64,000 nt of DNA from Escherichia coli. Lineage in GTDB: Bacteria > Pseudomonadota > Gammaproteobacteria > Enterobacterales > Enterobacteriaceae. Where the stretch lies: assembly GCF_044324785.1 (NCBI RefSeq), contig NZ_CP172127.1; one strand, written 5' to 3'. The notes under the pieces are model-generated. The model was given only the letters and a program-made list of their open reading frames with translations. It searched no databases and was not told the origin of the DNA. Made by a program: the position numbers and the translations under genes. Each line of letters opens with the position of its first letter. The first letter of the stretch is position 1. Positions 4,072 through 32,327 of this stretch are shown in pieces.

Positions 4072-5355
4072 TTACCGTTTGTAATCGATGGCTTCTGGCT
4101 GCTCCAGATATACGGTGGTTTGTGCTGGTTGGGTGCTGGCAATCACCTTACCGCCACGTACCGAATAGCGCACCGGAACCTGACGGCGCAGCGCATCAAA
4201 CCCATTTTCAGCCGGCAGGATAATCAGGTTGGCGCTGTTTCCGGCGGCAATGCCGTAATCCTGCAAATTCAACGTCCTGGCGCTATGGTGGGTGATTAAA
4301 TTCAGGCCGTCGTTAATCTGCCCGTAGCCCATCAACTGACAAACATGCAGCCCCATATGCAGCACTTGCAGCATATTCGCCGTTCCCAGTGGATACCACG
4401 GATCGAAGACATCATCGTGACCAAAGCAGACGTTAATGCCGGACTCCAGCATCTCTTTAACGCGCGTGATGCCGCGACGTTTTGGATAGGTATCGAAACG
4501 TCCTTGCAGATGAATATTGACCAGCGGGTTGGCGACAAAGTTAATACCGGACATTTTCAGCAAACGGAACAAGCGTGAGGTATACGCCCCGTTATAGGAG
4601 TGCATTGCCGTAGTGTGGCTAGCGGTGACTCGCGCGCCCATGCCTTCACGGTGCGCCAGGGCAGCAACGGTTTCGACAAAGCGCGACTGCTCGTCATCGA
4701 TCTCATCACAGTGAACGTCGATGAGACGGTCGTATTTTTGCGCCAGGGCGAAGGTTTTATGCAGCGACTCCACGCCGTATTCGCGGGTAAATTCAAAATG
4801 CGGAATCGCCCCCACTACGTCTGCCCCTAAGCGTAACGCCTCTTCCAGCAACGCTTCACCGTTGGGATACGACAAAATCCCTTCCTGCGGGAAGGCGACG
4901 ATTTGCAGATCAATCCACGGCGCGACTTCCTGCTTCACTTCCAGCATTGCTTTCAGCGCGGTCAGCGTTGCATCCGAAACATCGACATGGGTACGTACAT
5001 GCTGAATGCCGTTGGCAATCTGCCATTTCAGCGTTTGCCATGCGCGTTGTTTCACATCGTCATGGGTTAATAACGCTTTGCGCTCGGCCCAGCGTTCAAT
5101 GCCTTCGAACAGCGTGCCGGACTGATTCCAGTTCGGTTGTCCGGCGGTTTGCGTGGTGTCCAGGTGAATATGCGGCTCCACAAACGGCGGTAAAACTAAA
5201 CCTTGTTCGGCATCCAGGCTGTTTTCTGTTACGGGCATCACACCAGATTGCGTATCAATGGCGCTGATTTTTCCGTCGTGAAGATGAATCTGCCACAGCC
5301 CCTCTTTGCCGGGTAACCGGGCGTTAATAATTGTTTGTAAAGCGTTATTCGACAC
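4072..5355 (-). CDS. codA: cytosine deaminase
   Basis: ORF 4072..5370 matches CodA; start set to GTG at 5355 ([16 protein letters not shown]...), the known non-ATG start as I recall it. Confidence 0.94.
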
Positions 5356-6604
5356 TGTTAGCCTCCACATGCGTCATTGCTGCTGTCGTTTTACGATTCA
5401 AAATCGGGTTAAGGATCAGATAGCTCAGCGCGCCACCTAATACCGCGTTGACCGGAACAATTCCCGGTAACCAGTGGCCTGCGGCAATCCCCAGCGCGAC
5501 CGCCAGAATTGCCACCCAATTGACACTCATCATACGCGTGGTCGCAAAGTGCTCATAGCGGCGACGGTTCATCAGATAGTCAGCGATGATCACGCCCCCT
5601 ACCGGAGGAATAGCTGCCGAAAGGAAGGTCAGCCAGCCGACAAAATTGTTATACAGCCATAGTGCGCAGACCGTACCGATAATACCGTTGATTACCGAAA
5701 GGGTTTTGCTCGACATCCCGGTAATGTTGGCGAAACCTAAGCCCGACGCATAGAGCGCGTTATCGTTGGTGGTCCAGATATTCAGCCCCAGCACCACAAT
5801 CGCAGGCAGCAGCAGACCCTGAGCAATCATCACATCAGAGATATCCGCCATCCCCAGTGCCGCCGCGCCCGCTGCACCGAAAATAAACATCAACGAGTTG
5901 CCGAGGAAAAAGGCCACCATCGCCACCAGCACCGCCAGTTTGGCATTGCGACCAAACCGGACAAAGTCAGCGGTGAGCGTGCCCGCGCTGATAAATGACC
6001 CCACAACCAGCGCCAGTGCGACATTGAAATCTAACGGTTGTGCGGGAACGACCGCTTTTAATGCGTCCAGGCCGCCCATGCCATTAACAGCCAGCCACAC
6101 GGAATAACCGCCAAGGCAGGCGATAGCCGGAACCGCAATCACCGAAAGAACCGTCAGCGCCGAAATGCCAAAGAAGACGGTGACGGTCATCAGTAAACCG
6201 GAGACGGCAATCAGCAAATTAATATCCAGCCCGGTTGCCTTGCCCACCGGAATAGCAAACATCGCCACGCCAACGCCAAACCAGCCGACCTGAGTGCCGC
6301 CCAGCAGCAGTGAAGGCAGCCATGAGCCTTTAACACCAAACGAGAAGCGAGCAAGAAGATGAGTGGTCAGGCCGGTTTTTGCGCCAATGTAACCAAGAAA
6401 TGAAGTGTAAATACCGAGGAGAAGATTACCGATGAGGACTGCGAGGAAGAAATCATGATAGCTAAGACCGGTTCCGAGAGTGCCGCCGGTCCACATACTG
6501 GCGGAAAAGAAGGTTAATCCCAGCATGACGAACGTCAATGCCAATACCCCTTTCCGCGCCGACTGCGGGACTGGCCCCTGGCTAAAGTTGTTATCTTGCG
6601 ACAC
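5345..6604 (-). CDS. codB: cytosine permease
   Basis: 419-aa polytopic membrane protein matching CodB; 11-nt overlap with codA start indicates an operon. Confidence 0.95.
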
Positions 6605-22930: not shown

Positions 22931-23341
22931 CTACACAACGTCAATAAGGGCATATTCTTCAAAGATAACGTCCATTTCGGGTGAATAGCATCCTTCTGCC
23001 TGGAAAAAACGACGGTGTTCATTACGCCAATATTCAAGACTGAGGTCACCTTCACCTTCCTTACGGGCAAGCTCCGCGGTGACATCAGAAAAGCGCAGTA
23101 AATGCAGGCCAATCACTCTGATAACACAGACAGGCTCACCACGGCTATTTTCTACAATCTTATACTCACCAATCATCGGAAATGCGTTGTCTTCAATACA
23201 TCCCGCCAGCGAACCACAGGAAGCTGTTTTAACACCTGTCGCAATCAACGTTGCGAGGTGATCGGCCAACGCTGCTGAATCGCCAAAAGTACAAAAGGAA
23301 GCATGGGGATATTTTTGTGAGATTTTTTCTTTTATGGTCAT
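22931..23341 (-). CDS. ASCH/PUA-like domain protein
   Basis: ORF 22931..23374 (GTG) or from ATG 23341; GVKTAS motif typical of ASCH domains; no clear Shine-Dalgarno at either start. Confidence 0.55.
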   Translation of the reverse strand: MTIKEKISQKYPHASFCTFGDSAALADHLATLIATGVKTASCGSLAGCIEDNAFPMIGEYKIVENSRGEPVCVIRVIGLHLLRFSDVTAELARKEGEGDLSLEYWRNEHRRFFQAEGCYSPEMDVIFEEYALIDVV

Positions 23342-23637
23342 GAGAATATTTTCGCGATTACGGAAAAAAATCACATCTTAATTACTGTAGATAACCATCA
23401 GCAAGAGGATCATTGGTTTTCCTATGTTTAATCTTTTTTATCCGAAGCAGGTCACATTTATGGCTTGATAAATACCTTTGTTAAAACTCACTTTTGTGTA
23501 TTTCTCTCAAATAATCCCCTGGAAATTATGCCGGGAGATTATAAAGTTCAGGATCATTCATTAACAAACCATTCCCGCCCCACTCCCTGGGGCTTAAATC
23601 TCTTACGATTCACCGTTGCAGACATATCAAATGCGCA

Positions 23638-25020
23638 TCAACCTGCCACACTCCCCCACACCAGTTGCCCTTTATGGAACGTCGCCGTTCTCGGCGAGAT
23701 ACGCGCCACCGCCTCGGCGGAACAGGAGGCGTCCACCAGCACAAAGCTGGCGTCATCCTGCGCTTTAGGCCACACACGCTCGCCTTTTTCGTTGAGCGGC
23801 AATACATCGCCAGTGGCTAAAAACAGCGAACGGGAGAGGTTCTGTTCGTTAGGACGAATATAGAGCTGCGCGTAGAGATTGGCTTTTTCCAGCATGTCGC
23901 CCAGGCCGTAAGGCGACCAGTGGTCGATAACGCTGTCGGTGCCGGTCATCACTTTTACGCCTTTGTCGTGCAGTTGTTTAAGCGGCATATGTAGCGTGCC
24001 GATCGGCACCGTCGAGGCGATAGAAATTTGCTGCGCCGCCATCCGGTGCGCCAGTTCATCTACCTGTTGCTCATTGAGCGTTGCCAACGCAAAGGCGTGA
24101 CTGATGGTCAGCTTGCCCTTCAGTTGCGGCGTTTTCTCCACTGTTTCAACCATATAATTGATGGCCGCCACGCCTGCCGGAGTGGTTTCATGCAGGTGAA
24201 TATCGACGCCTTTGTCGTAGTCCAGCGCAATCTGGAACATGGTGTCGAGGGATTTTTCCATCGCGCCATCAACACTGGTTGGGTCCAGCCCGCCGACGTA
24301 ATGCGCCCCTGCCTGCATCGCTTCGCGCATTAAGGGTTCCGATTTCGACAGCAGCAAACCGTGCTGCGGGAAGGCGACGATTTCACACTCGAAGCCCGCC
24401 TGACGTCGCGCCAGCACCGCCTGCAAATTTTGCAGATTTTTCAGGCCGGAAACCGGTTCGATATTGCAGTGGCTGCGGGCAATGGTAGTGCCTTTCGACT
24501 GCAATAAATCGATCAGTTTTTCCGCCCTTTCCTGAGTGTACGGTTGCAACTCCGGCAGCATTTTCTGCTCGAGTTTGATCATGTCCTGGATGGTGGTGCC
24601 TGCCGGGCGATTGAGCGAGCGCCACGGCCCGCCGTAAAAGGTTTTGTCGAGATGAATATGCATGTCGCGGGTGGTGGGCAGCATCAGCTTACCGCCAGCG
24701 TCATAGTGCGGCAGCGTGGCGTCCGGATGCTGCTTGTTCTCGCGCAGGGCAACAATTTTGCCGTTCTGAATCTCTACGGTCTGGTGCGCCGTGCGGGTCT
24801 GTACCGCCACACCGTTTTCGTAGTCAAAACCGGTTTCCAGCAGCACGTTGTCGAGATAGTAGTGCGGGTCAGTGATTTTCATGGTGTTATTCGCGTCGCA
24901 GTTTAGGGTGCCAGAGACTGCCGCATGGGCGAGCGGCACAGAGGTACCAAACAGCGCGGCGGCGGTGACCATCTTACCGCTCTGGCTCAGAAACTCACGG
25001 CGGCTATTGTTTTTTTTCAT
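23638..25020 (-). CDS. yahJ: Tat-signal amidohydrolase (cytosine-deaminase-like)
   Basis: 460-aa ORF; N-terminal twin-arginine motif SRREFL followed by a hydrophobic stretch ending AHAAV; metal-dependent amidohydrolase fold; matches YahJ length. Confidence 0.88.
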   Translation of the reverse strand: MKKNNSRREFLSQSGKMVTAAALFGTSVPLAHAAVSGTLNCDANNTMKITDPHYYLDNVLLETGFDYENGVAVQTRTAHQTVEIQNGKIVALRENKQHPDATLPHYDAGGKLMLPTTRDMHIHLDKTFYGGPWRSLNRPAGTTIQDMIKLEQKMLPELQPYTQERAEKLIDLLQSKGTTIARSHCNIEPVSGLKNLQNLQAVLARRQAGFECEIVAFPQHGLLLSKSEPLMREAMQAGAHYVGGLDPTSVDGAMEKSLDTMFQIALDYDKGVDIHLHETTPAGVAAINYMVETVEKTPQLKGKLTISHAFALATLNEQQVDELAHRMAAQQISIASTVPIGTLHMPLKQLHDKGVKVMTGTDSVIDHWSPYGLGDMLEKANLYAQLYIRPNEQNLSRSLFLATGDVLPLNEKGERVWPKAQDDASFVLVDASCSAEAVARISPRTATFHKGQLVWGSVAG

Positions 25021-25029
25021 CTTACGTCC

Positions 25030-25980
25030 TTACGTTTTAATAATATGTGTGCCTGTTTCGCCGCGCAGCGCCGCAGGCAGGCATTCCGGCGTGGTGATAA
25101 TCACTTCTTTGCCGCCCTGCTCCAGGAACGTCAGGCTGGCGATGATTTTTGGCAACATGCTGCCAGGCGGGAAATGCCCTTCCTGCATATAGCGGGTCAT
25201 GGTGGCAATATCCACCCGATCCAGCGCCTGCTGCTGCGGCTTGCCAAAGTGAATACACACTTTTTCGACGCCGGTGGTGATCACCAGAATGTCGGCGTGA
25301 ATTTCACGGGCCAATAGCGCGGTAGAGAGATCTTTGTCGATAACCGCGTCCACGCTTTGGTAATCCCCCGCTTCACTGCACACCACCGGAATTCCACCGC
25401 CGCCCGCGCCAATCACCACAAAACCTTGTTGGATCAGCGCCTTAATGGCAGGTGCTTCGACAATACGTTTCGGTTCCGGCGAGGCGACCACGCGGCGATA
25501 GCCCCGTCCGGCATCTTCAACAAAACGCCAGTCAGGATTTGCCTTTTGTAATTCGTCACGCTGGCTGTCACTAAAGAATGCGCCGATGGGCTTGGTGGGA
25601 TGAGCAAATCCCGGATCGTTTTTATCCACTTCCACCTGAGTCACCACGGTGACGGCTTTTTTCTCGCCGTGACGCGCCAGCCGGTTGTTCAGCGCCTGTT
25701 GGATCAGATAGCCAATGCCGCCTTGCGTATCCGCCACACAGTTCGCCAGCGGCGTTAAGGGCAGCCCTTCGCGCTCGTGGGCAATCTCCGCGCGGCGTAA
25801 ATCCAAACCGACCTGCGGCCCGTTGCCGTGGGTCAGCACAATGTCGTAATCGGAAGCCAGCATTTCCAGCACCGTATCGGCCACGGCTTTCACCGCCTCC
25901 GCCTGATGCTCAATCGACTGGCTGGCGTTATCTTTGATAATGCTGTTGCCACCAATGGCAACGACCACAAGTTCTTTCAT
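25030..25980 (-). CDS. yahI: carbamate kinase-like protein
   Basis: 316-aa amino-acid-kinase-family ORF matching YahI; 9-nt gap to yahJ. Confidence 0.88.
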   Translation of the reverse strand: MKELVVVAIGGNSIIKDNASQSIEHQAEAVKAVADTVLEMLASDYDIVLTHGNGPQVGLDLRRAEIAHEREGLPLTPLANCVADTQGGIGYLIQQALNNRLARHGEKKAVTVVTQVEVDKNDPGFAHPTKPIGAFFSDSQRDELQKANPDWRFVEDAGRGYRRVVASPEPKRIVEAPAIKALIQQGFVVIGAGGGGIPVVCSEAGDYQSVDAVIDKDLSTALLAREIHADILVITTGVEKVCIHFGKPQQQALDRVDIATMTRYMQEGHFPPGSMLPKIIASLTFLEQGGKEVIITTPECLPAALRGETGTHIIKT

Positions 25981-26030
25981 GTTGTTATGTCCGCTACAGA
26001 GGGTGATGGGGTTATGACCAACGCCAGACT

Positions 26031-26202
26031 GCCTGATGCGCTACGCTTATCAGGCCTAGAATTCTCGTGCCATTCGTAGGCCGGATAAGGCGTTCACGCC
26101 GCATCCGGCAATGGTGACAAATGCCTGATGCGCTACGCTTATCAGGCCTACAGATTCTCGCGCCACTCGTAGGCCGGATAAGGCGTTCACGCCGCATCCG
26201 GC
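26031..26202. repeat. REP cluster (BIME): two tandem copies of an inverted REP pair
   Basis: gcctgatgcgctacgcttatcaggcctac and gtaggccggataaggcgttcacgccgcatccggca each occur twice (26031..26110 and 26123..26202). Confidence 0.88.
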
Positions 26203-26225
26203 AAAGACAACGCGCACTTTGCAGG

Positions 26226-27503
26226 TCAGACGCCGTAACGTTCGCACCAGCCAAGAATGGCTTTTTCGAAGCAGGCGAATGGTGGATGCACAATGCCCGC
26301 GCCAATCATGCCGATGCCCGCATCTTTATGAGCGATGGCGGTGTTGATCACTGGCAGAATGCCGCTACTGCCCACGCGGGTGATGTCGATTGCCGACGGC
26401 ACGCCCATAAAACCGAGCAGCGGAATGGTGACGTTGGGGTTTTCGCCGAGAGTGATTTCGCGCATCTGACGGGAGAAATCGATAGCTTCTTCCACCGTAC
26501 CGCCCACCAGCGCGACGATTGCAGGCGCGGTCGCCATAGCAAATCCGCCAATACCGTAGGTTTCGGTGATGGCACTGTCGCCAATATCCAATCCAGAATC
26601 TTCCGGCTTATAACCGGCAAACATCGGGCCGATCACCTGCTGCGCCGGACCGGAGAAGTAGTCGCTGCTGGCGACAAACTCAAACACTTCGCGCTGTTGC
26701 TCGACGGAATAGCCCGCCTGAATAATCCCCGGCGTCAGCGCCTGAATCAGCAACGTAGTCCCGGCGTTATTGCGGTTATGGCATTCATCGCCCATATGCA
26801 GCGCCTGCGCCAGCATCAAGCGCAGATCGATCTCGCCGATAATTTTCATTGCGTCACGCAGCATTGGCCCCTGCACATCGCGCATCCAGTTGAGGCGGTC
26901 AATCACGCTCTGGTCGTTAGCGCCCATACGCAAAATCTTCGCCATCTGCTCGCTCATGTTGGTATAAGCGATGTTGCCGTAGGTTTTGTTTTTTACGATG
27001 TGCATAAACATCGAGGCCGAGGTAACACCCGCCATCGATCCCACACAGTCGTGTTCGTGGCACGGCGAGAAGGTGATCTCCCCGGAGGCCGCCAGGTCAG
27101 CCGCCTCGTCGAGATCTTTCGCCAGTCCTTCGAACACCAGCGCTCCGGTGACCGCGCCTTTCATCGCGCCGCACATTTTTTCCCAGGTGATCGGCGGCCC
27201 GGCGTGAAGAATGGTTTTCGGCGTCATGCCCGGCACCACGTTAATCGCCTGATCAAAACCAATCAGCACCGGATGTGACTGAATAATGCGCTCCAGAGCC
27301 TGCTGATTAGCGGCGGCGATTTTGTCTGCCAGCGGCGAATCGGCAATGTTATCCAGCGCCTGCACCACCTGCATATTGCCCTGCCCCGGCGGCGTCCAGT
27401 CGAGTTGGGTCACTTCTACATGCTGCTTTTTCAGGTCATCGCTAAACATGGCGATGCCGACGTTAATAACGTTCAACGGTTGGCTAAACAGTGACTGGCT
27501 CAT
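26226..27503 (-). CDS. yahG: DUF1116 protein (YlbE-like)
   Basis: 425-aa ORF homologous in type to YlbE; start overlaps yahF stop by 1 nt. Confidence 0.85.
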   Translation of the reverse strand: MSQSLFSQPLNVINVGIAMFSDDLKKQHVEVTQLDWTPPGQGNMQVVQALDNIADSPLADKIAAANQQALERIIQSHPVLIGFDQAINVVPGMTPKTILHAGPPITWEKMCGAMKGAVTGALVFEGLAKDLDEAADLAASGEITFSPCHEHDCVGSMAGVTSASMFMHIVKNKTYGNIAYTNMSEQMAKILRMGANDQSVIDRLNWMRDVQGPMLRDAMKIIGEIDLRLMLAQALHMGDECHNRNNAGTTLLIQALTPGIIQAGYSVEQQREVFEFVASSDYFSGPAQQVIGPMFAGYKPEDSGLDIGDSAITETYGIGGFAMATAPAIVALVGGTVEEAIDFSRQMREITLGENPNVTIPLLGFMGVPSAIDITRVGSSGILPVINTAIAHKDAGIGMIGAGIVHPPFACFEKAILGWCERYGV

Positions 27504-29050
27504 CAGGCTTCCTCCCCTTTGCAGATAAATTCACGCGCCAGCAATCCGGTATTGGTGCTACTGCTGGCCAGAATCACTCCGCCATCAAGCAGCATCTGGC
27601 TTTGTTGTTCTAACGATGGCGTATCGAGATCGGTACCCAGAACATAGGCGAGAATGATCAACTCGCGCCCTTCGGCAGCGGCGATCGCTTTCGCCTCTTT
27701 GATCGCCTCGATGGTGGAACCGACCGGATCTTCATGCGATCCAAACCCGAGCACAAAATCCATCACGATCACCGCCACTTCTGGATCGCGCGCTTCTTCG
27801 ATCAACCGGCTGATACGGTTGGTGGGGTCAATCATTGGATGCGGCTTGCCGTTGGTGAAGTCGTCATCGCCAAAGTCGAGGAAGGTGTGTTTGATGCTGC
27901 GGTTGATATCTTGCAGGCGGAATTCAGGATCGGGCTGAATGTTGCTGTAGACATCGCCATGTTTTTCCATCACCGCGAACATGGTTTCGTCACACAGCGT
28001 ACCGCCGCAGAACAGGCCACGAATGTATTTCTGTTGCGGCTTCAGGCGAGCGCGCACGTCAGCAATCAATGGCTGGTTCAGGGTATGCAGATCGAGATGT
28101 TCCTGTTTCACGCCGGAGAGCATCACCGCTTTCAGCGCCGCTTCTTTGCTGCCGCGGGCAAACTTTAGCCCCTGCTCATCCACTGGCGTTTCGCCACGAC
28201 CGAGGAAGCAGACCACCACCGGCTTGCGGCAGGCGCGTGCGCGTTCCAGCACTTTGCGGGCCACCGCAGGCGCAGGCGGTTTGGAGATAAGCACAATAAT
28301 TTCAGTTTGCGGATCGTTTTCCAGCATCCCGATGGCGTCGAGCATCATCAGGCCGCCGATTTTCTCGCTCAGGTCGCGCCCGCCGGTGCCGATCAGTTGC
28401 GAAACGCCGCCGCCAAATTCATGGATACGGACGCTCAGCTCCTGGCTACCGGTGCCGGATGCGCCAACAATGCCGATGTTGCCGCGACGCACGGCGTTAC
28501 CAAAGCAGAGCGCCGCGCCGTTGATAATCGCCGTACCGCAGTCTGGCCCCATCATCAGCAGCCCTTTTTCGTGGGCCAACTGTTTGAGCGCCAGTTCATC
28601 TTCAACTGAGACGTTATCGGAAAACAGCATCACGTTAAGATCGTTTTGCAGCGCCTGACGCGCTTCGCGAGCGGCAAACAGACCGTTGACCGAAATCACC
28701 GCCAGGTTACTTTCCGGGATATGCTTTTTGGCGCTGGCAATAGTGGCATAGCGTGCTTCATGTGAACCAGTTTGAGCTTTGCTGTTGAACAGTTCTTCAA
28801 TCTCCACCAGCAACTGCTCGTTGTCCGCACCCGCTTTGCCGTTGATGACAATCATCAGGTCACCGTTTTTCGCCTGCTCCAGTTCCGGCGTCAGCAGTCC
28901 TAAATTCTTCAGCACGCCTTTGTTCATTTCGGTCGCCATCGCCACAAATGCCTGCTCGACGCCGTCGAGTTTATTTGCACGCGTGGAGATAGACATCAGC
29001 GAGACAGAATCAAAATAGGTATTCGGTTTAATGACTATTTTAACTGACAT
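27503..29050 (-). CDS. yahF: FdrA-like CoA-binding protein (succinyl-CoA-ligase-alpha-like fold)
   Basis: 515-aa ORF matching YahF length; overlaps yahE by 11 nt. Confidence 0.88.
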   Translation of the reverse strand: MSVKIVIKPNTYFDSVSLMSISTRANKLDGVEQAFVAMATEMNKGVLKNLGLLTPELEQAKNGDLMIVINGKAGADNEQLLVEIEELFNSKAQTGSHEARYATIASAKKHIPESNLAVISVNGLFAAREARQALQNDLNVMLFSDNVSVEDELALKQLAHEKGLLMMGPDCGTAIINGAALCFGNAVRRGNIGIVGASGTGSQELSVRIHEFGGGVSQLIGTGGRDLSEKIGGLMMLDAIGMLENDPQTEIIVLISKPPAPAVARKVLERARACRKPVVVCFLGRGETPVDEQGLKFARGSKEAALKAVMLSGVKQEHLDLHTLNQPLIADVRARLKPQQKYIRGLFCGGTLCDETMFAVMEKHGDVYSNIQPDPEFRLQDINRSIKHTFLDFGDDDFTNGKPHPMIDPTNRISRLIEEARDPEVAVIVMDFVLGFGSHEDPVGSTIEAIKEAKAIAAAEGRELIILAYVLGTDLDTPSLEQQSQMLLDGGVILASSSTNTGLLAREFICKGEEA

Positions 29051-29903
29051 AATTCCCTCCGTAGGTTTGGCTCAGCGCACAACCATCGGCCATGCCATAC
29101 AGCATGTCGCAGCCGGAACTGGAGCCAATATGTTTAATTTTTTCTATTGCCTGAGTTGCGTTCCCAGGGATGTCATAAATAATGTTATGAATAAAACGAT
29201 GAATATTTTCCCGGCAGCGTTGTTGTAATGCGGCTTCCAGCGTTATGGCACTTAATAACGTGGTATTATTTCTGCCGCGTTGCAGACCGAGATAAAATTC
29301 CTCTTTGTATTTTTCCGCCGGATGTCCGGAAATAAATAAAATAAGCGCCAGACCTGTTAAATAATCGTCAGCTGATGGCGTAAGGCCAATCCCTAAGCCC
29401 ATCATACTGGCGACTGCTGAGGCGATATTTTGTTTATCGTTTACGGCCTGAATAACTGCCCGTCGTTTAATATGTAATTCTTTATTTAACGCCTGATAAA
29501 ACGGATTATCGCCGCAATAATTAAACAGGGTTTCATTTTCCCCCAGGTGCTGATGAATAATGTCATGCCACTGTTGCCAGGCGATAAGGTGAAAATTCAC
29601 AGCGGTCATTTGCAAGGTTGGGGACAGCCAACGCCGACAACGACTCATCTCTATATGAAGATGTTGACCAACCGTAATGCCTTGATCGTCAAACTGAACC
29701 TTATCACCATGCCGGAACAGACCATCAAAGTGAGTGAGTGCCAACCGACAACTGTTTGGCGCATTGTCATACTCTTCACAAAGCAGCGTCAGCAACTGCT
29801 GGCGGGCCGGAAGTGCGATATTTACCGCTCTGGCAAAGACCTGTTCAACCTGTCCTTGCCCCCGCTGTGCCAGAAAATCCGCATCCGCAGTTAGCGCCCA
29901 CAC
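29040..29903 (-). CDS. yahE: DUF2877 protein (YlbF-like)
   Basis: 287-aa ORF matching YahE length and position. Confidence 0.85.
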   Translation of the reverse strand: MWALTADADFLAQRGQGQVEQVFARAVNIALPARQQLLTLLCEEYDNAPNSCRLALTHFDGLFRHGDKVQFDDQGITVGQHLHIEMSRCRRWLSPTLQMTAVNFHLIAWQQWHDIIHQHLGENETLFNYCGDNPFYQALNKELHIKRRAVIQAVNDKQNIASAVASMMGLGIGLTPSADDYLTGLALILFISGHPAEKYKEEFYLGLQRGRNNTTLLSAITLEAALQQRCRENIHRFIHNIIYDIPGNATQAIEKIKHIGSSSGCDMLYGMADGCALSQTYGGNYVS

Positions 29904-29942: not shown

Positions 29943-30548
29943 TTATGCACCTGCGGCAATCAGCAACTGCGCAATCTCTTCAAAGCCTCGTTCCCGCGCC
30001 AGTTCCAGCGGCGTTTTGCCATATTTATCCGTCATGTGCGGGCTGGCACCGTGTTCAAGCAATAACTGGACAATCGCCTGCTGTTTAATCCCGCCATCAT
30101 TAAGCACAATTGCTTCCAGTAGCGGCGTCCAGCCAACATAGTTGGTCTGGTTAACGTTAATCTCCGTATGCGCCAAAAGCTCTTTTACAATACTTAAATG
30201 GCCTTTTTCACAGGCAGGCGTCAGGCCGACACCGCCAAAACGGGTGACGCAATTAAGATCGGGTTTAGCCGGTAAAATAATCCGTAACAGGGTTAAATCG
30301 CCGGTCAGGCAGCTAATTAAAAAAGGATTTGAACATATTTGATCTTGCTTATTAATATCCGCTCCGGCATCAATTAATGCCTGAACGCAAGCATATTGCT
30401 GATATAAACTTGCCAGCGTAATTGCCGTTTTTCCCTGACGATCGCAGGTATTAATATCGACACCCAGCGCAAGGCAGGTTTTTACTTTATCGATATCACC
30501 CTGTTGCGCAGCCAATAAATAGTCGGCAGGTAGATTTTTTATAGTCAT
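29943..30548 (-). CDS. yahD: ankyrin-repeat protein
   Basis: 201-aa ORF with repeated ankyrin-type segments (…GADINKQD…, …LLEHGASPHM…). Confidence 0.85.
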   Translation of the reverse strand: MTIKNLPADYLLAAQQGDIDKVKTCLALGVDINTCDRQGKTAITLASLYQQYACVQALIDAGADINKQDQICSNPFLISCLTGDLTLLRIILPAKPDLNCVTRFGGVGLTPACEKGHLSIVKELLAHTEINVNQTNYVGWTPLLEAIVLNDGGIKQQAIVQLLLEHGASPHMTDKYGKTPLELARERGFEEIAQLLIAAGA

Positions 30549-30805: not shown

Positions 30806-31303
30806 ATGAACGGACTCACGGCAACGGGTGTCACCGTCGGTATTTGTGCAGGGCTTTGGCAGTTAGTGTCTTCACATGTTGGGCTCTCTCAGGGATGGGA
30901 ATTATTAGGAACCATTGGCTTCGTCGCCTTTTGCAGTTTTTATGCCGCAGGCGGCGGTAAATCGGGGTTTATCAGAAGTCTGGCGGTTAATTATTCCGGG
31001 ATGGTGTGGGCGTTTTTCGCCGCGCTGGCTGCCGGCTGGCTGGCCTCGGTGAGTGGATTGTCCACGTTCTGGGCGAGCGTGATTATGACTGTACCCTTCT
31101 CGGCGGTGGTGGTCTGGCAAGGACGTTTCGGTTTATTGTCTTTTATTCCCGGAGGCTTTCTCGGCATGACGCTATTTTTTGCCAGCGGGATGAACTGGAC
31201 AGTGACATTACTGGGTTTTCTGGCGGGTAACTGCGTGGGGATAATTTCAGAATATGGCGGACAAAAATTAAGCGAAGCGACGACTAAACGCGACGGGTAT
31301 TAA
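30806..31303 (+). CDS. yahC: small inner-membrane protein
   Basis: 165-aa hydrophobic ORF at the expected position. Confidence 0.8.
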   Translation: MNGLTATGVTVGICAGLWQLVSSHVGLSQGWELLGTIGFVAFCSFYAAGGGKSGFIRSLAVNYSGMVWAFFAALAAGWLASVSGLSTFWASVIMTVPFSAVVVWQGRFGLLSFIPGGFLGMTLFFASGMNWTVTLLGFLAGNCVGIISEYGGQKLSEATTKRDGY

Positions 31304-31394
31304 AAGTTATTCAAAAATGATTATCTATCTTTAACCGATACCTCTACAGTCATGGCTGGAGAAATTCATATTCGATAATGGCGGGAATGGTTTA

Positions 31395-32327
31395 ATGAAC
31401 TCAATTTTTACCGAAGAGAATCTGTTGGCATTTACTACCGCTGCGCGTTTTGGCAGTTTCAGTAAAGCCGCAGAAGAGTTGGGTTTAACCACTTCCGCCA
31501 TTAGCTACACCATCAAGCGAATGGAAACAGGGCTGGATGTGGTGCTGTTCACTCGCAGTACCCGAAGCATTGAGTTAACGGAGTCCGGGCGTTATTTTTT
31601 CCGCAAAGCTACCGACCTGCTGAATGATTTTCACGCCATCAAACGCAGCATCGATACTATTTCGCAGGGTATAGAAGCACGGGTGCGCATTTGTATTAAC
31701 CAACTGCTTTATACGCCCAAACACACCGCACGCTTATTACAGGTACTGAAAAAGCAGTTTCCAACCTGCCAGATTACCGTGACGACCGAAGTGTATAACG
31801 GCGTCTGGGATGCGATTATTAATAATCAGGCGAATATTGCTATCGGCGCGCCCGACACACTGCTGGACGGCGGCGGCATTGATTACACGGAGATTGGCGC
31901 AATTCGCTGGGCTTTTGCTATCGCCCCGGATCACCCATTAGCCTTTGTGCCGGAGCCGATCGCCGAAAGCCAACTGCGTCTCTATCCTAATATCATGGTG
32001 GAGGACACCGCGCATACGATTAATAAAAAAGTGGGCTGGTTGCTGCATGGGCAGGAGTCGATTCTGGTGCCAGATTTCAACACCAAATGTCAGTGCCAGA
32101 TTTTAGGTGAAGGAATTGGTTTTTTGCCGGATTACATGGTCCGTGAGGCGATGGCGCAATCCCTGCTGGTTACCCGACAAATCCATAATCCGCGCCAGGA
32201 TTCACGCATGTTACTCGCAACTCAGCATTCTGCTACGGGTCAGGTGACGCAGTGGATTAAAAAACAATTTTCGCCAAATGGCATATTAACGGGGATCTAT
32301 CAGGATTTACTGCATCGGGAGAATTAA
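31395..32327 (+). CDS. yahB: LysR-family transcriptional regulator
   Basis: 310-aa ORF with N-terminal HTH (FSKAAEELGLTTSAISYTIKRME). Confidence 0.85.
   Translation: MNSIFTEENLLAFTTAARFGSFSKAAEELGLTTSAISYTIKRMETGLDVVLFTRSTRSIELTESGRYFFRKATDLLNDFHAIKRSIDTISQGIEARVRICINQLLYTPKHTARLLQVLKKQFPTCQITVTTEVYNGVWDAIINNQANIAIGAPDTLLDGGGIDYTEIGAIRWAFAIAPDHPLAFVPEPIAESQLRLYPNIMVEDTAHTINKKVGWLLHGQESILVPDFNTKCQCQILGEGIGFLPDYMVREAMAQSLLVTRQIHNPRQDSRMLLATQHSATGQVTQWIKKQFSPNGILTGIYQDLLHREN

Follow-up and report, generated by a model that had tools for sequence, protein, structure and literature searches.

YahJ of Escherichia coli is found in published lists of Tat substrates generated with TATFIND (PMC3027627) and TatP (PMC7549933), and its Tat signal is thus already known. 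The TatP prediction was made for the near-identical YahJ peptide of PCN033, MKESNSRREFLSQSGKMVTAAALFGTSVPLAHA, and an extra-intestinal pathogenic strain was slightly less fit in mice when yahJ was deleted, with a competitive index of 0.70 (PMC7549933). The yah cluster has been listed among the densest blocks of uncharacterised genes in K-12 (PMC11551758). Tat export has been reported for another metalloenzyme of the amidohydrolase superfamily, the organophosphate hydrolase (phosphotriesterase) of Brevundimonas diminuta (Gorla et al. 2009, PMID 19700527). This enzyme resembles YahJ in carrying a twin-arginine signal and in acting outside the cytoplasm, the latter being a prediction in the case of YahJ. 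The organophosphate hydrolase differs from YahJ in its binuclear metal centre, its subfamily and its substrate, and in being membrane-associated.

The solved structures closest to YahJ are those of AtzC (N-isopropylammelide isopropylaminohydrolase; 2qt3 and 4cqb) and the Burkholderia protein 6nbo, with phmmer E values of 4e-44 to 3e-30 and target-normalised Foldseek TM scores of 0.84–0.89. These proteins have an HxH...H...H...D mononuclear site in common with YahJ. However, they are only 21–28% identical to it and lack a signal peptide; their solved chains begin at approximately YahJ residue 50–60. The cytosine deaminase CodA has the same fold, and all of its metal and catalytic residues align with those of YahJ, but the two are just 25% identical; CodA lacks a signal peptide, and its partner is the cytosine permease CodB. 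Directly after the metal-binding Asp, YahJ has S363, AtzC has N and 6nbo has G, and CodA has D314 at this position.

For the genes that accompany yahJ, the closest described system is the oxamate carbamoyltransferase AllFGH, which acts with a carbamate kinase in anaerobic allantoin degradation; the yah genes are not mentioned in the paper describing it (PMC11326118). In Pfam, YahE belongs with AllH, YahF with the AllF-type proteins and YahG with AllG, and YahI is a carbamate kinase, as in the AllFGH system. The allantoin route includes no Tat-exported enzyme, whereas the yah cluster is predicted to encode one. A Tat substrate gene in an operon with a dedicated translocase is known from Bacillus (phoD-tatAd-tatCd), whereas no dedicated Tat genes are found at the E. 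coli yahJ locus.

The DNA examined here, referred to as the window, is a 64,000 nucleotide stretch of the E. coli contig NZ_CP172127.1. In it, yahJ is the last gene of a yahD-E-F-G-I-J operon that is divergent from the LysR gene yahB. The relevant features are:

4072–5370, minus strand: codA, cytosine deaminase gene, next to codB
18244–23341, minus strand: strain-variable ASCH/ABC cassette, outside the yah system (Pfam, NCBIfam, distribution)
18244–19200 and 19197–20168, minus strand: cassette permease genes (Pfam, NCBIfam)
20161–21645, minus strand: cassette ATPase gene (Pfam, NCBIfam)
21694–22677, minus strand: cassette binding protein gene, CUT2 sugar-type (Pfam, NCBIfam)
22931–23341, minus strand: ASCH gene of the cassette (Pfam)
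23638–25020, minus strand: yahJ, encoding a 460 aa amidohydrolase-family precursor (ORF and translation)
23641–24921, minus strand: predicted mature YahJ, residues 34–460, with a linker to about residue 49 followed by a CodA/AtzC-type barrel
24922–25020, minus strand: YahJ Tat signal peptide, residues 1–33 (n-region, SRREFL, h-region and AHA c-region)
24922–24930, minus strand: A31-H32-A33, predicted signal peptidase I site with the cut between AHA and AV (alanines conserved in most orthologues)
24988–25005, minus strand: YahJ twin-arginine motif, S6-R7-R8-E9-F10-L11 (conservation in 84 species)
25030–25980, minus strand: yahI, carbamate kinase family (NF009007, 646 bits), directly upstream of yahJ in the same operon
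26226–29903, minus strand: yahG, yahF and yahE, encoding paralogues of AllG, AllF and AllH (Pfam AllG, CoA-ligase/CoA_binding and AllH)
29943–30548, minus strand: yahD, encoding a 201 aa ankyrin-repeat protein with no signal peptide (Pfam Ank families, sequence)
30806–32327, plus strand: yahC, encoding a DUF1097 membrane protein, and yahB, encoding a LysR regulator, both divergent from the yahD-J operon (Pfam)

This context differs from that of yahJ in K-12 in the presence of the ASCH/ABC cassette and in a 141 bp in-frame deletion in yahG, which has removed 47 residues (alignment A1).

The yahJ gene in the window is 100% identical to that of E. coli N3 and 97% identical to K-12 b0324. It starts with the ATG at 25020, 9 nt downstream of the yahI stop codon, and a Shine-Dalgarno sequence, AAGGA, is found at 25027–25031. 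The N-terminal sequence of YahJ is MKKNNSRREFLSQSGKMVTAAALFGTSVPLAHAAVSG, and the predicted cut lies between MKKNNSRREFLSQSGKMVTAAALFGTSVPLAHA and AVSG. From residue 5 on, the signal peptide is identical to that of PCN033, and the n-region contains K3 and N4 where the published YahJ has E3 and S4. A preliminary description of this locus had reported an SRREFL motif near the N-terminus and a hydrophobic stretch ending in AHA followed by AV. Both were confirmed, with the motif at residues 6–11 and the hydrophobic stretch at M17–A33, of which residues 31–33 are AHA. The motif lies at the n/h boundary, within the first approximately 35 residues, and conforms to the S/T-R-R-x-F-L-K consensus except that S12 replaces the K. 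When the 221 ORFs of at least 60 aa in the window were searched for [ST]RRxF[LI] in their first 40 residues, YahJ was the sole match, which, with the conservation described below, indicates that the motif is not a chance occurrence. The h-region (M17–A33) is 17 residues long with zero charge, and its mean Kyte-Doolittle value is 1.31, compared with 1.68 for the Sec signal of the cassette binding protein. It is therefore like the h-regions of Tat signals, which are uncharged, moderately hydrophobic and about 12–20 residues long. In the c-region, A31-H32-A33 is of the A-x-A form recognised by signal peptidase I.

Other properties of the signal are less typical. No K or R is present across residues 17–40, and the c-region thus lacks a basic "Sec-avoidance" residue, which is common in Tat signals but not obligatory. 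The NCBIfam model TIGR01409 (TAT_signal_seq) matched residues 6–33 over its full length, but the score of 14.6 bits is under the curated cut-off of 16.7; the Sec signal of the cassette binding protein was not matched by this model at all. The Pfam TAT_signal family was not matched in a scan of the first 45 residues of YahJ, and short models of this type miss many true Tat signals. The possibility that YahJ is a lipoprotein was considered and rejected, as there is no lipobox and Cys41, which is preceded by L-N, is only 58% conserved.

Conservation of the signal was profiled using orthologues from 84 distinct species. R7, R8 and F10 were 100% conserved (84/84 species), as was L or I at position 11, while K16 was 99% conserved. 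At the cleavage site, alanine was retained at A31 (−3) in 89% and at A33 (−1) in 96%. Residues 1–5 and 35–46 were free to vary (1.6–3.1 bits of entropy), and the approximately 12 residues past the AxA site are hypervariable. Comparison of the twin-arginine codons revealed CGC, CGT, CGA and AGA for the first Arg and CGT, CGA, AGA, CGC and CGG for the second, including switches between CGN and AGA. As the arginines have been kept despite the use of four and five codons, selection has acted on the amino acids. The signal was equally conserved where the ABC cassette is absent. The same RR-type motif recurs in homologues from other phyla that are 36–62% identical to YahJ, and Bacteroidota-type homologues retain S-R-K-D-F-L/I-K. 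No signal was found in most relatives at 46% identity or less, or in CodA from the same window. Together with the published TatP and TATFIND predictions, the conservation of the signal supports the assignment of a Tat signal to YahJ.

The enzyme that follows the signal scored 716 bits against NCBIfam NF005312 (PRK06846 amidohydrolase subfamily; cut-off 447) and matched Pfam Amidohydro_3 and Amidohydro_1. When aligned with CodA, YahJ H121, H123, Q219, H275, E278, H308 and D362 correspond to CodA H61, H63, Q156, H214, E217, H246 and D313, respectively. The alignment predicts H121, H123, H275 and D362 as metal ligands and H308 and E278 as catalytic residues. Across 85 homologues, H121, H123, Q219, H275, H277 and D362 were invariant, and the HxH, two His and Asp of strands 1, 5, 6 and 8 (H121/H123/H275/H308/D362) were invariant or nearly so. 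An AlphaFold model of YahJ (pLDDT 92, pTM 0.88) and its Foldseek comparison revealed a (beta/alpha)8 barrel with an accessory beta-sandwich; residues 1–47 were of low confidence or unstructured, and folding begins at approximately residue 50. The best solved matches found with Foldseek and phmmer were 6nbo, AtzC and CodA, each with a Foldseek probability of 1.00. Judged from its sequence, YahJ is an intact CodA/AtzC-type mononuclear amidohydrolase, and the earlier suggestion of a metal-dependent amidohydrolase is supported by the intact metal ligands. Neither of two more specific identities was accepted. For cytosine deaminase, YahJ scored 69.9 bits with the equivalog model NF005759 (cut-off 403), 82.6 bits with the subfamily model NF006685 (cut-off 483) and 103.3 bits with the subfamily model NF005748 (cut-off 438). 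AtzC was rejected because the identity to the solved matches is 21–28%.

Gene neighbourhoods in distant genera also point to export. In Priestia, tatA and tatC come 30 bp behind the gene for a homologue that is 52% identical to YahJ and has an SRRRF motif, apparently in one operon with it, and the homologue gene is faced by one for a xanthine/uracil-family permease. The arrangement resembles the Bacillus phoD-tatAd-tatCd operon, though the cargo differs. The Caulobacter homologue lies 30 bp behind a gene for a TonB-dependent receptor. We conclude that YahJ very probably works in the periplasm, because a Tat-type cleavable signal precedes a folded, metal-binding amidohydrolase. The conserved signal, the Priestia tatA-tatC operon, the TonB-dependent receptor neighbour in Caulobacter and the published predictions agree with the periplasmic location put forward in the preliminary description. 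The comment that this location is unusual for the enzyme class was a fair one, as most relatives at 46% identity or less, and CodA, are without a signal. Of more interest than the known signal is what a cytosine-deaminase/AtzC-like enzyme would do in this compartment in E. coli and related species.

Alternatively, the signal could be served by Sec or by both pathways, or could remain uncleaved and anchor YahJ at the outer face of the inner membrane. Partial routing through Sec may occur, because the c-region has no basic residue; in addition, the TIGR01409 score is under threshold, with unfolded reporters many Tat leaders of E. coli behave promiscuously, and the Tat-exported organophosphate hydrolase of the same superfamily remains membrane-associated. 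However, Sec does not need an RR-x-F that is invariant over 84 species, a dedicated tatA-tatC pair adjoins the Priestia homologue, and a metal-loaded barrel is typical Tat cargo. As the AxA site is also conserved and there is no lipobox at Cys41, these possibilities taken together appear unlikely. A reading in which the RR motif is fortuitous, or in which translation truly starts at M17, would make YahJ cytoplasmic, as are most relatives at 46% identity or less, and codon 17 is indeed an in-frame ATG. But in 84 species the amino acids of residues 6–16 have been kept while codons have turned over, and the same motif is found in homologues 36–62% identical from other phyla. Moreover, a good Shine-Dalgarno sequence precedes codon 1, and a protein initiated at M17 would begin with a bare hydrophobic stretch. 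A cytoplasmic YahJ is therefore extremely improbable, and Tat export to the periplasm is preferred.

The preliminary description also had YahJ acting before uptake by the neighbouring ABC transporter. In such a model, periplasmic YahJ would make the substrate for the importer and the two would form one functional unit. The cassette is directly downstream of yahJ in the same orientation; the binding protein that it encodes carries a Sec signal and so would meet YahJ in the periplasm. An ASCH-domain gene lies between yahJ and the transporter genes, and some ASCH proteins hydrolyse N4-acylcytidines. A search of the minus strand after yahJ found no strong terminator, and read-through into the ASCH gene is thus possible, but the 296 bp gap between yahJ and the cassette contains a promoter-like site (10/12). 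The distribution of the two argues against a unit: of 5426 complete E. coli genomes, 5033 contain yahJ but only 2213 contain the cassette, and in K-12 the cassette is absent and deletion scars are left. In 80 other species, no homologue of the cassette was found closer than 10 kb to yahJ, and it was not seen in the yahJ neighbourhoods of Klebsiella, Erwinia, Aeromonas, Pragia, Priestia or the Bacteroidota type. At the Caulobacter locus, the only ABC system is an unrelated one of the branched-chain-amino-acid type, approximately 5 kb away. RhaS and LsrB are the nearest families for the binding protein, a CUT2 sugar-type protein that scores far under the cut-offs of both, and conservation of the Tat signal is independent of the presence of the cassette. 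We conclude that the cassette is an E. coli-only insertion/deletion whose placement beside yahJ is accidental, and a functional unit of YahJ and the ABC importer is very unlikely. The earlier interpretation, which began from a feature that is real and, though it did not mention this, already in the literature, is thus partly supported.

Examination of yahJ loci in other species identified a different set of partners. The synteny of yahI and yahJ reaches a homologue of just 36% identity, and at the locus of the 36% identical homologue with an RR signal the order is membrane protein, ankyrin, AllH, AllF, AllG, carbamate kinase and YahJ. In most species, yahB adjoins the cluster. A 515 aa membrane protein is a conserved partner of yahJ in most genera but is absent in Escherichia, and yahC was found only where the gene for this protein is missing. 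The 515 aa protein returned no sequence matches in Pfam, NCBIfam or PDB and was left as an unclassified polytopic membrane protein. Nine species, including Erwinia, Pragia and Cedecea neteri, retain only yahB-yahD-yahJ, while Xenorhabdus and Shewanella morhuae retain yahJ alone; the link of YahJ to YahEFG and YahI is not obligatory. The conserved partners of yahJ are YahB, YahD, YahEFG, YahI and the 515 aa unclassified membrane protein. Attention thereby moves to them from the ABC cassette, and they represent a concrete starting point for assigning a function to the yah cluster.

The overall explanation that we consider likely is that Tat-exported, periplasmic YahJ is the outside-first step of a catabolic route encoded by the yah cluster. 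YahJ would fold and load a single divalent metal in the cytoplasm, with H121, H123, H275 and D362 as ligands like those of cytosine deaminase and AtzC. TatABC would recognise S-R-R-E-F-L and carry the folded enzyme over the inner membrane, with export dependent on Tat in vivo, and signal peptidase I would cut after A31-H32-A33. Once in the periplasm, the mature enzyme of approximately 427 residues, on a flexible linker of about 15 residues, would catalyse hydrolytic deamination or de-alkylamination, with some amino-substituted N-heterocycle as its probable substrate. The most likely logic would be that of nitrogen-heterocycle or ureide catabolism begun outside the cytoplasm, with the later cytoplasmic steps performed by the AllFGH-like carbamoyltransferase YahEFG and the carbamate kinase YahI, yielding ATP. 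The periplasmic and cytoplasmic enzymes would be linked by a dedicated secondary carrier, not by the adjacent ABC cassette. Most genera would use the 515 aa membrane protein as this carrier, a role that YahC may have in Escherichia. The sub-threshold TIGR01409 score, the lack of a Pfam TAT_signal match in the first 45 residues, the c-region free of basic residues, the species that have yahJ but not yahEFG and yahI, the yahG deletion in the window and the missing 515 aa membrane protein in Escherichia count against this explanation.

YahD could extend the scheme, and a search of the literature returned nothing on its function. YahD and YahJ might be extracytoplasmic partners, with the signal-less YahD of Enterobacterales hitch-hiking via Tat. 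The pair would then provide entry to an undescribed N-heterocycle/ureide pathway that proceeds through the 515 aa proteins, as a new family of carriers, and the AllFGH-like carbamoyltransferase and carbamate kinase to ATP. We regard this as tentative and rather doubtful. An AlphaFold model of a YahJ-linker-YahD fusion did not support YahD docking on YahJ or serving as its chaperone, as it gave no confident docking (pTM 0.64 versus 0.88 for YahJ alone), with the YahJ signal peptide still disordered and no gain in confidence; this is a weak test, as the model was of a single chain with 14 paired rows (shallow pairing) and came without an error map. Xenorhabdus and Shewanella have yahJ without yahD, which also counts against a partnership. 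Overall, yahD is missing despite adequate upstream sequence in approximately seven loci (five Xenorhabdus, one Shewanella and one Cedecea), while 70 of the 86 loci considered for this count have a complete yahD adjoining yahJ. Among distant loci, YahD-like neighbours are present in L088, L093 and L094, and YahD-like genes adjoin YahJ homologues that are 62%, 47% and 36% identical. In 30 of 80 Bacteroidota-type loci, a YahD homologue (40% identical, E value 2e-46) adjoins the YahJ homologue. Of 120 Bacteroidota-type YahD homologues, 103 have a hydrophobic signal-like N-terminus, and in 95 of these 103 a cysteine is placed as in a lipoprotein, which indicates that they are exported there.

The window is E. 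coli chromosome. Its stretch around yahJ (23400-25300) is 100% identical to strain N3 and was found in 5033 of the 5426 complete E. coli genomes searched. Matches lie at 5203 places, including 116 in plasmid records, and in 107 records the identity is only 80-90%. The features of the window needed here are:

4072-5370, minus strand: codA
23638-25020, minus strand: yahJ, annotated ORF with a 460 aa product
30806-31303, plus strand: yahC (DUF1097)
Downstream of yahJ, in order: an ASCH-domain gene, a binding protein gene, an ATPase gene and two permease genes, then yahK

A Shine-Dalgarno sequence stands before the yahJ ATG, which begins 9 nt after the yahI stop. The stop and start codons are 12 nt apart in one reading frame, so mutating a single base of the stop would leave the twin-arginine (Tat) signal of YahJ in the interior of a fusion protein. 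Three single-member metagenome proteins (P0001-P0003, 779-780 aa) are in-frame YahI-YahJ fusions (...TYGRKMKENNSRREF...) and are possibly sequencing errors.

Translation of the ORF gives the N-terminus MKKNNSRREFLSQSGKMVTAAALFGTSVPLAHA/AVSGTLNC, and the signal anatomy set out in the preliminary description is all present: SRREFL (residues 6-11), a run of 17 residues without charge, and AHA with AV after it. Among the 221 ORFs of at least 60 aa in the window, yahJ is the only one with [ST]RRxF[LI] near its start. The curated model TIGR01409 aligns over its full length to residues 6-33, but its score of 14.6 bits stays under the cut-off (16.7), which is sub-threshold support. The Sec signal of the binding protein encoded nearby was not matched by it, and Pfam had no match to the YahJ signal. 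When 84 distinct orthologue sequences were aligned, with 80 loci taken from different species, R7, R8 and F10 were invariant, position 11 was always L or I, K16 was kept in 99%, and alanine was found in 89% at -3 and 96% at -1. Residues 1-5 and, most of all, 35-46 vary freely. The codons for the two arginines are of four and five kinds, CGN/AGA switches included, so selection is on the peptide and not the DNA. Among the 120 closest database proteins, RR is present wherever the N-terminus is intact, bar one Xenorhabdus sequence with RH.

That YahJ has a Tat signal is already in print, and the feature is real. One study applied TatP to an extra-intestinal pathogenic strain and includes YahJ in its list, with the peptide MKESNSRREFLSQSGKMVTAAALFGTSVPLAHA; in mice, deletion of yahJ gave a competitive index of 0.70 (p = 0.02) (PMC7549933). 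The gene (b0324, 'putative deaminase') is also listed as a predicted E. coli Tat substrate without a Salmonella counterpart (PMC3027627), and a 2024 survey placed yahC, E, G, H, I and J within a dense cluster of uncharacterised genes (PMC11551758).

YahJ scores 716 bits with NCBIfam NF005312 (cut-off 447). Assignment as a cytosine deaminase was rejected, as scores fall far under the cut-offs of the cytosine-deaminase models. The closest solved relatives are, in order, the Burkholderia 'N-isopropylammelide isopropylaminohydrolase' (6nbo, E 4e-44), AtzC and CodA. Aligned with CodA, every metal and catalytic residue is present (YahJ H121/H123/Q219/H275/E278/H308/D362 for CodA H61/H63/Q156/H214/E217/H246/D313), but CodA D314 is replaced by S363. 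Across 85 homologues, with identities as low as 25%, H121, H123, Q219, H275, H277 and D362 never vary. In the AlphaFold model built from the 85-homologue alignment (pLDDT 92, pTM 0.88), the first 47 residues lack structure and folding starts near residue 50; Foldseek with this model returned 6nbo, AtzC and CodA. From the intact active site, the family score and the fold, YahJ is predicted to be a mononuclear amidohydrolase of the CodA/AtzC type that is catalytically competent and carries a signal and a flexible linker at its N-terminus.

Among representatives of 50%-identity clusters of YahJ homologues, Tat-like N-termini occur in a few branches, and most relatives that are 46% identical or less begin straight at the catalytic domain.

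Homologues with a Tat-like N-terminus (identity to YahJ)
P0122, Alphaproteobacteria-type: 62%
P0123, Priestia: 52%
P0134, Caulobacter: 51%
P0126: 48%
P0145: 36%
P0215: 33%

In Priestia (Bacillaceae), tatA and tatC follow 30 bp after the YahJ homologue in an apparent operon (locus L089 8001-10438; L090 3668-6105), and a xanthine/uracil-family permease gene faces it. Bacillus has operons that pair a Tat substrate with its translocase, and the Priestia arrangement is like these. The Caulobacter homologue lies 30 bp after a TonB-dependent receptor gene. Bacteroidota-type homologues (80 metagenome loci, L096-L175) keep S-R-K-D-F-L/I-K, with Arg-Lys replacing the twin arginine. The Priestia, Caulobacter and Bacteroidota-type loci provide independent genomic evidence for export. 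With a conserved signal under selection and these homologue neighbourhoods, the periplasmic location first proposed for YahJ is well supported.

The further proposal, that YahJ acts before uptake by the neighbouring ABC transporter, is not supported. The cassette of ASCH and transporter genes is strain-variable, present in 2213 of 5426 E. coli genomes, and in K-12, where it is absent, yahK follows yahJ directly. The K-12 spacer (locus L002 12509-12884) still holds the ends of two cassette genes: 70 bp from the 3' end of the ASCH gene (window 22909-22978) and the 3' part of the final permease gene (18097-18315). As these are cassette remnants, the K-12 state is a deletion, and the cassette-free state (about 59% of E. 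coli) is, judging from these sequences, a deletion of an older insertion. In 80 other species no homologue of a cassette gene was found up to 10 kb from yahJ, nor was one present in the annotated neighbourhoods inspected, and Tat signal conservation is equal with and without the cassette. The periplasmic binding protein belongs to the sugar (CUT2) type; RhaS and LsrB come nearest, but it scores far under their cut-offs. The 296 bp that separate yahJ from the ASCH gene include a 10/12 promoter-like site, and no terminator was detected there.

The set that does recur, in Enterobacterales, Aeromonas and beyond, is yahB (LysR, divergent), yahD (ankyrin), yahE/F/G, yahI (carbamate kinase) and yahJ. 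By Pfam, the yahE/F/G products are AllH, CoA-ligase and AllG, respectively; PMC11326118 describes the oxamate carbamoyltransferase to which they are paralogous. Nine species retain just yahB-yahD-yahJ, and yahJ alone is kept in five Xenorhabdus species and Shewanella morhuae.

A gene for a 515 aa polytopic membrane protein, absent from the window, sits between yahG and yahI in 52 loci from most genera (e.g. L005 7300-8847). The protein is 82-87% identical among Enterobacterales and had no match in Pfam, NCBIfam or PDB sequences. In the distant locus L093 it is 69% identical (228-1763) and so better conserved than YahJ (36%); the order there is membrane protein, ankyrin, AllH, AllF, AllG, carbamate kinase, YahJ, adjoining PucR- and LysR-type regulators. 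The genera without it are Escherichia, Klebsiella, Kluyvera, Raoultella and Pseudocitrobacter, and exactly those 11 loci, and only those, carry yahC. This mutual exclusion suggests that yahC and the 515 aa protein gene replace each other.

In 70 of 86 loci a whole yahD gene could be extracted next to yahJ, and in only about seven is it absent although enough upstream sequence is available. YahD-like genes also adjoin YahJ homologues that are 62%, 47% and 36% identical. No signal peptide was found in YahD. Its Bacteroidota-type homologue (40% identical, E 2e-46; L094 6135-6803, minus strand) begins MKTLLLLSLMGLFPSC and adjoins the YahJ homologue in 30 of the 80 loci. A hydrophobic signal-like N-terminus is present in 103 of its 120 closest homologues (P0298-P0417), 95 of which also have a cysteine where a lipoprotein would have one. 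An ankyrin partner bearing targeting information, as in the Bacteroidota-type loci, would be exported. When YahJ-(GGGGS)7-YahD was modelled with AlphaFold, on an alignment of 14 paired rows to which YahJ relatives were added unpaired, confidence was good for each domain and the signal peptide was below pLDDT 55; the pTM of 0.64 is about the value of two undocked domains, and this weak test lends no support to a complex.

What the analysis shows is the Tat signal and the selection on it, the active site and fold of YahJ, and the gene neighbourhoods. By established Tat biology, YahJ would fold and load its metal before export, TatBC would recognise its signal, and signal peptidase would cleave after AHA. 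Mature YahJ would be a metallo-amidohydrolase, soluble in the periplasm, and its reaction would be the deamination or de-alkylamination of an amino-substituted heterocycle outside the cell. Going only by synteny, the product may enter through the 515 aa carrier, or YahC, and may feed an AllFGH-like carbamoyltransferase and carbamate kinase. The parts worth following are the YahD partnership and the unclassified 515 aa membrane protein.

Relative to N3 and K-12, yahG (26226-27503, minus strand) has a 141 bp in-frame deletion of 47 residues in the AllG/DUF1116 domain, with a junction near 26650 and CCGGA in common at the breakpoints. In the best 6 of 5072 matching records, which are complete E. 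coli genomes, the junction aligns as two segments over a span of 342 bp, so the deletion is missing in all six. The window is accordingly from a strain other than N3, even though the two yahJ genes are 100% identical. The yahI-yahG spacer (25981-26225), which corresponds to the doubtful K-12 ORF yahH, is filled with REP-type repeats (GCCGGATAAGGCG...). In Leclercia adecarboxylata NCTC13032 (L086), where the cluster looks partly decayed, yahD is reduced to a 21-codon ORF (about 3358), yahE and yahF gave no match, and the 515 aa protein gene matches from residue 165 only.
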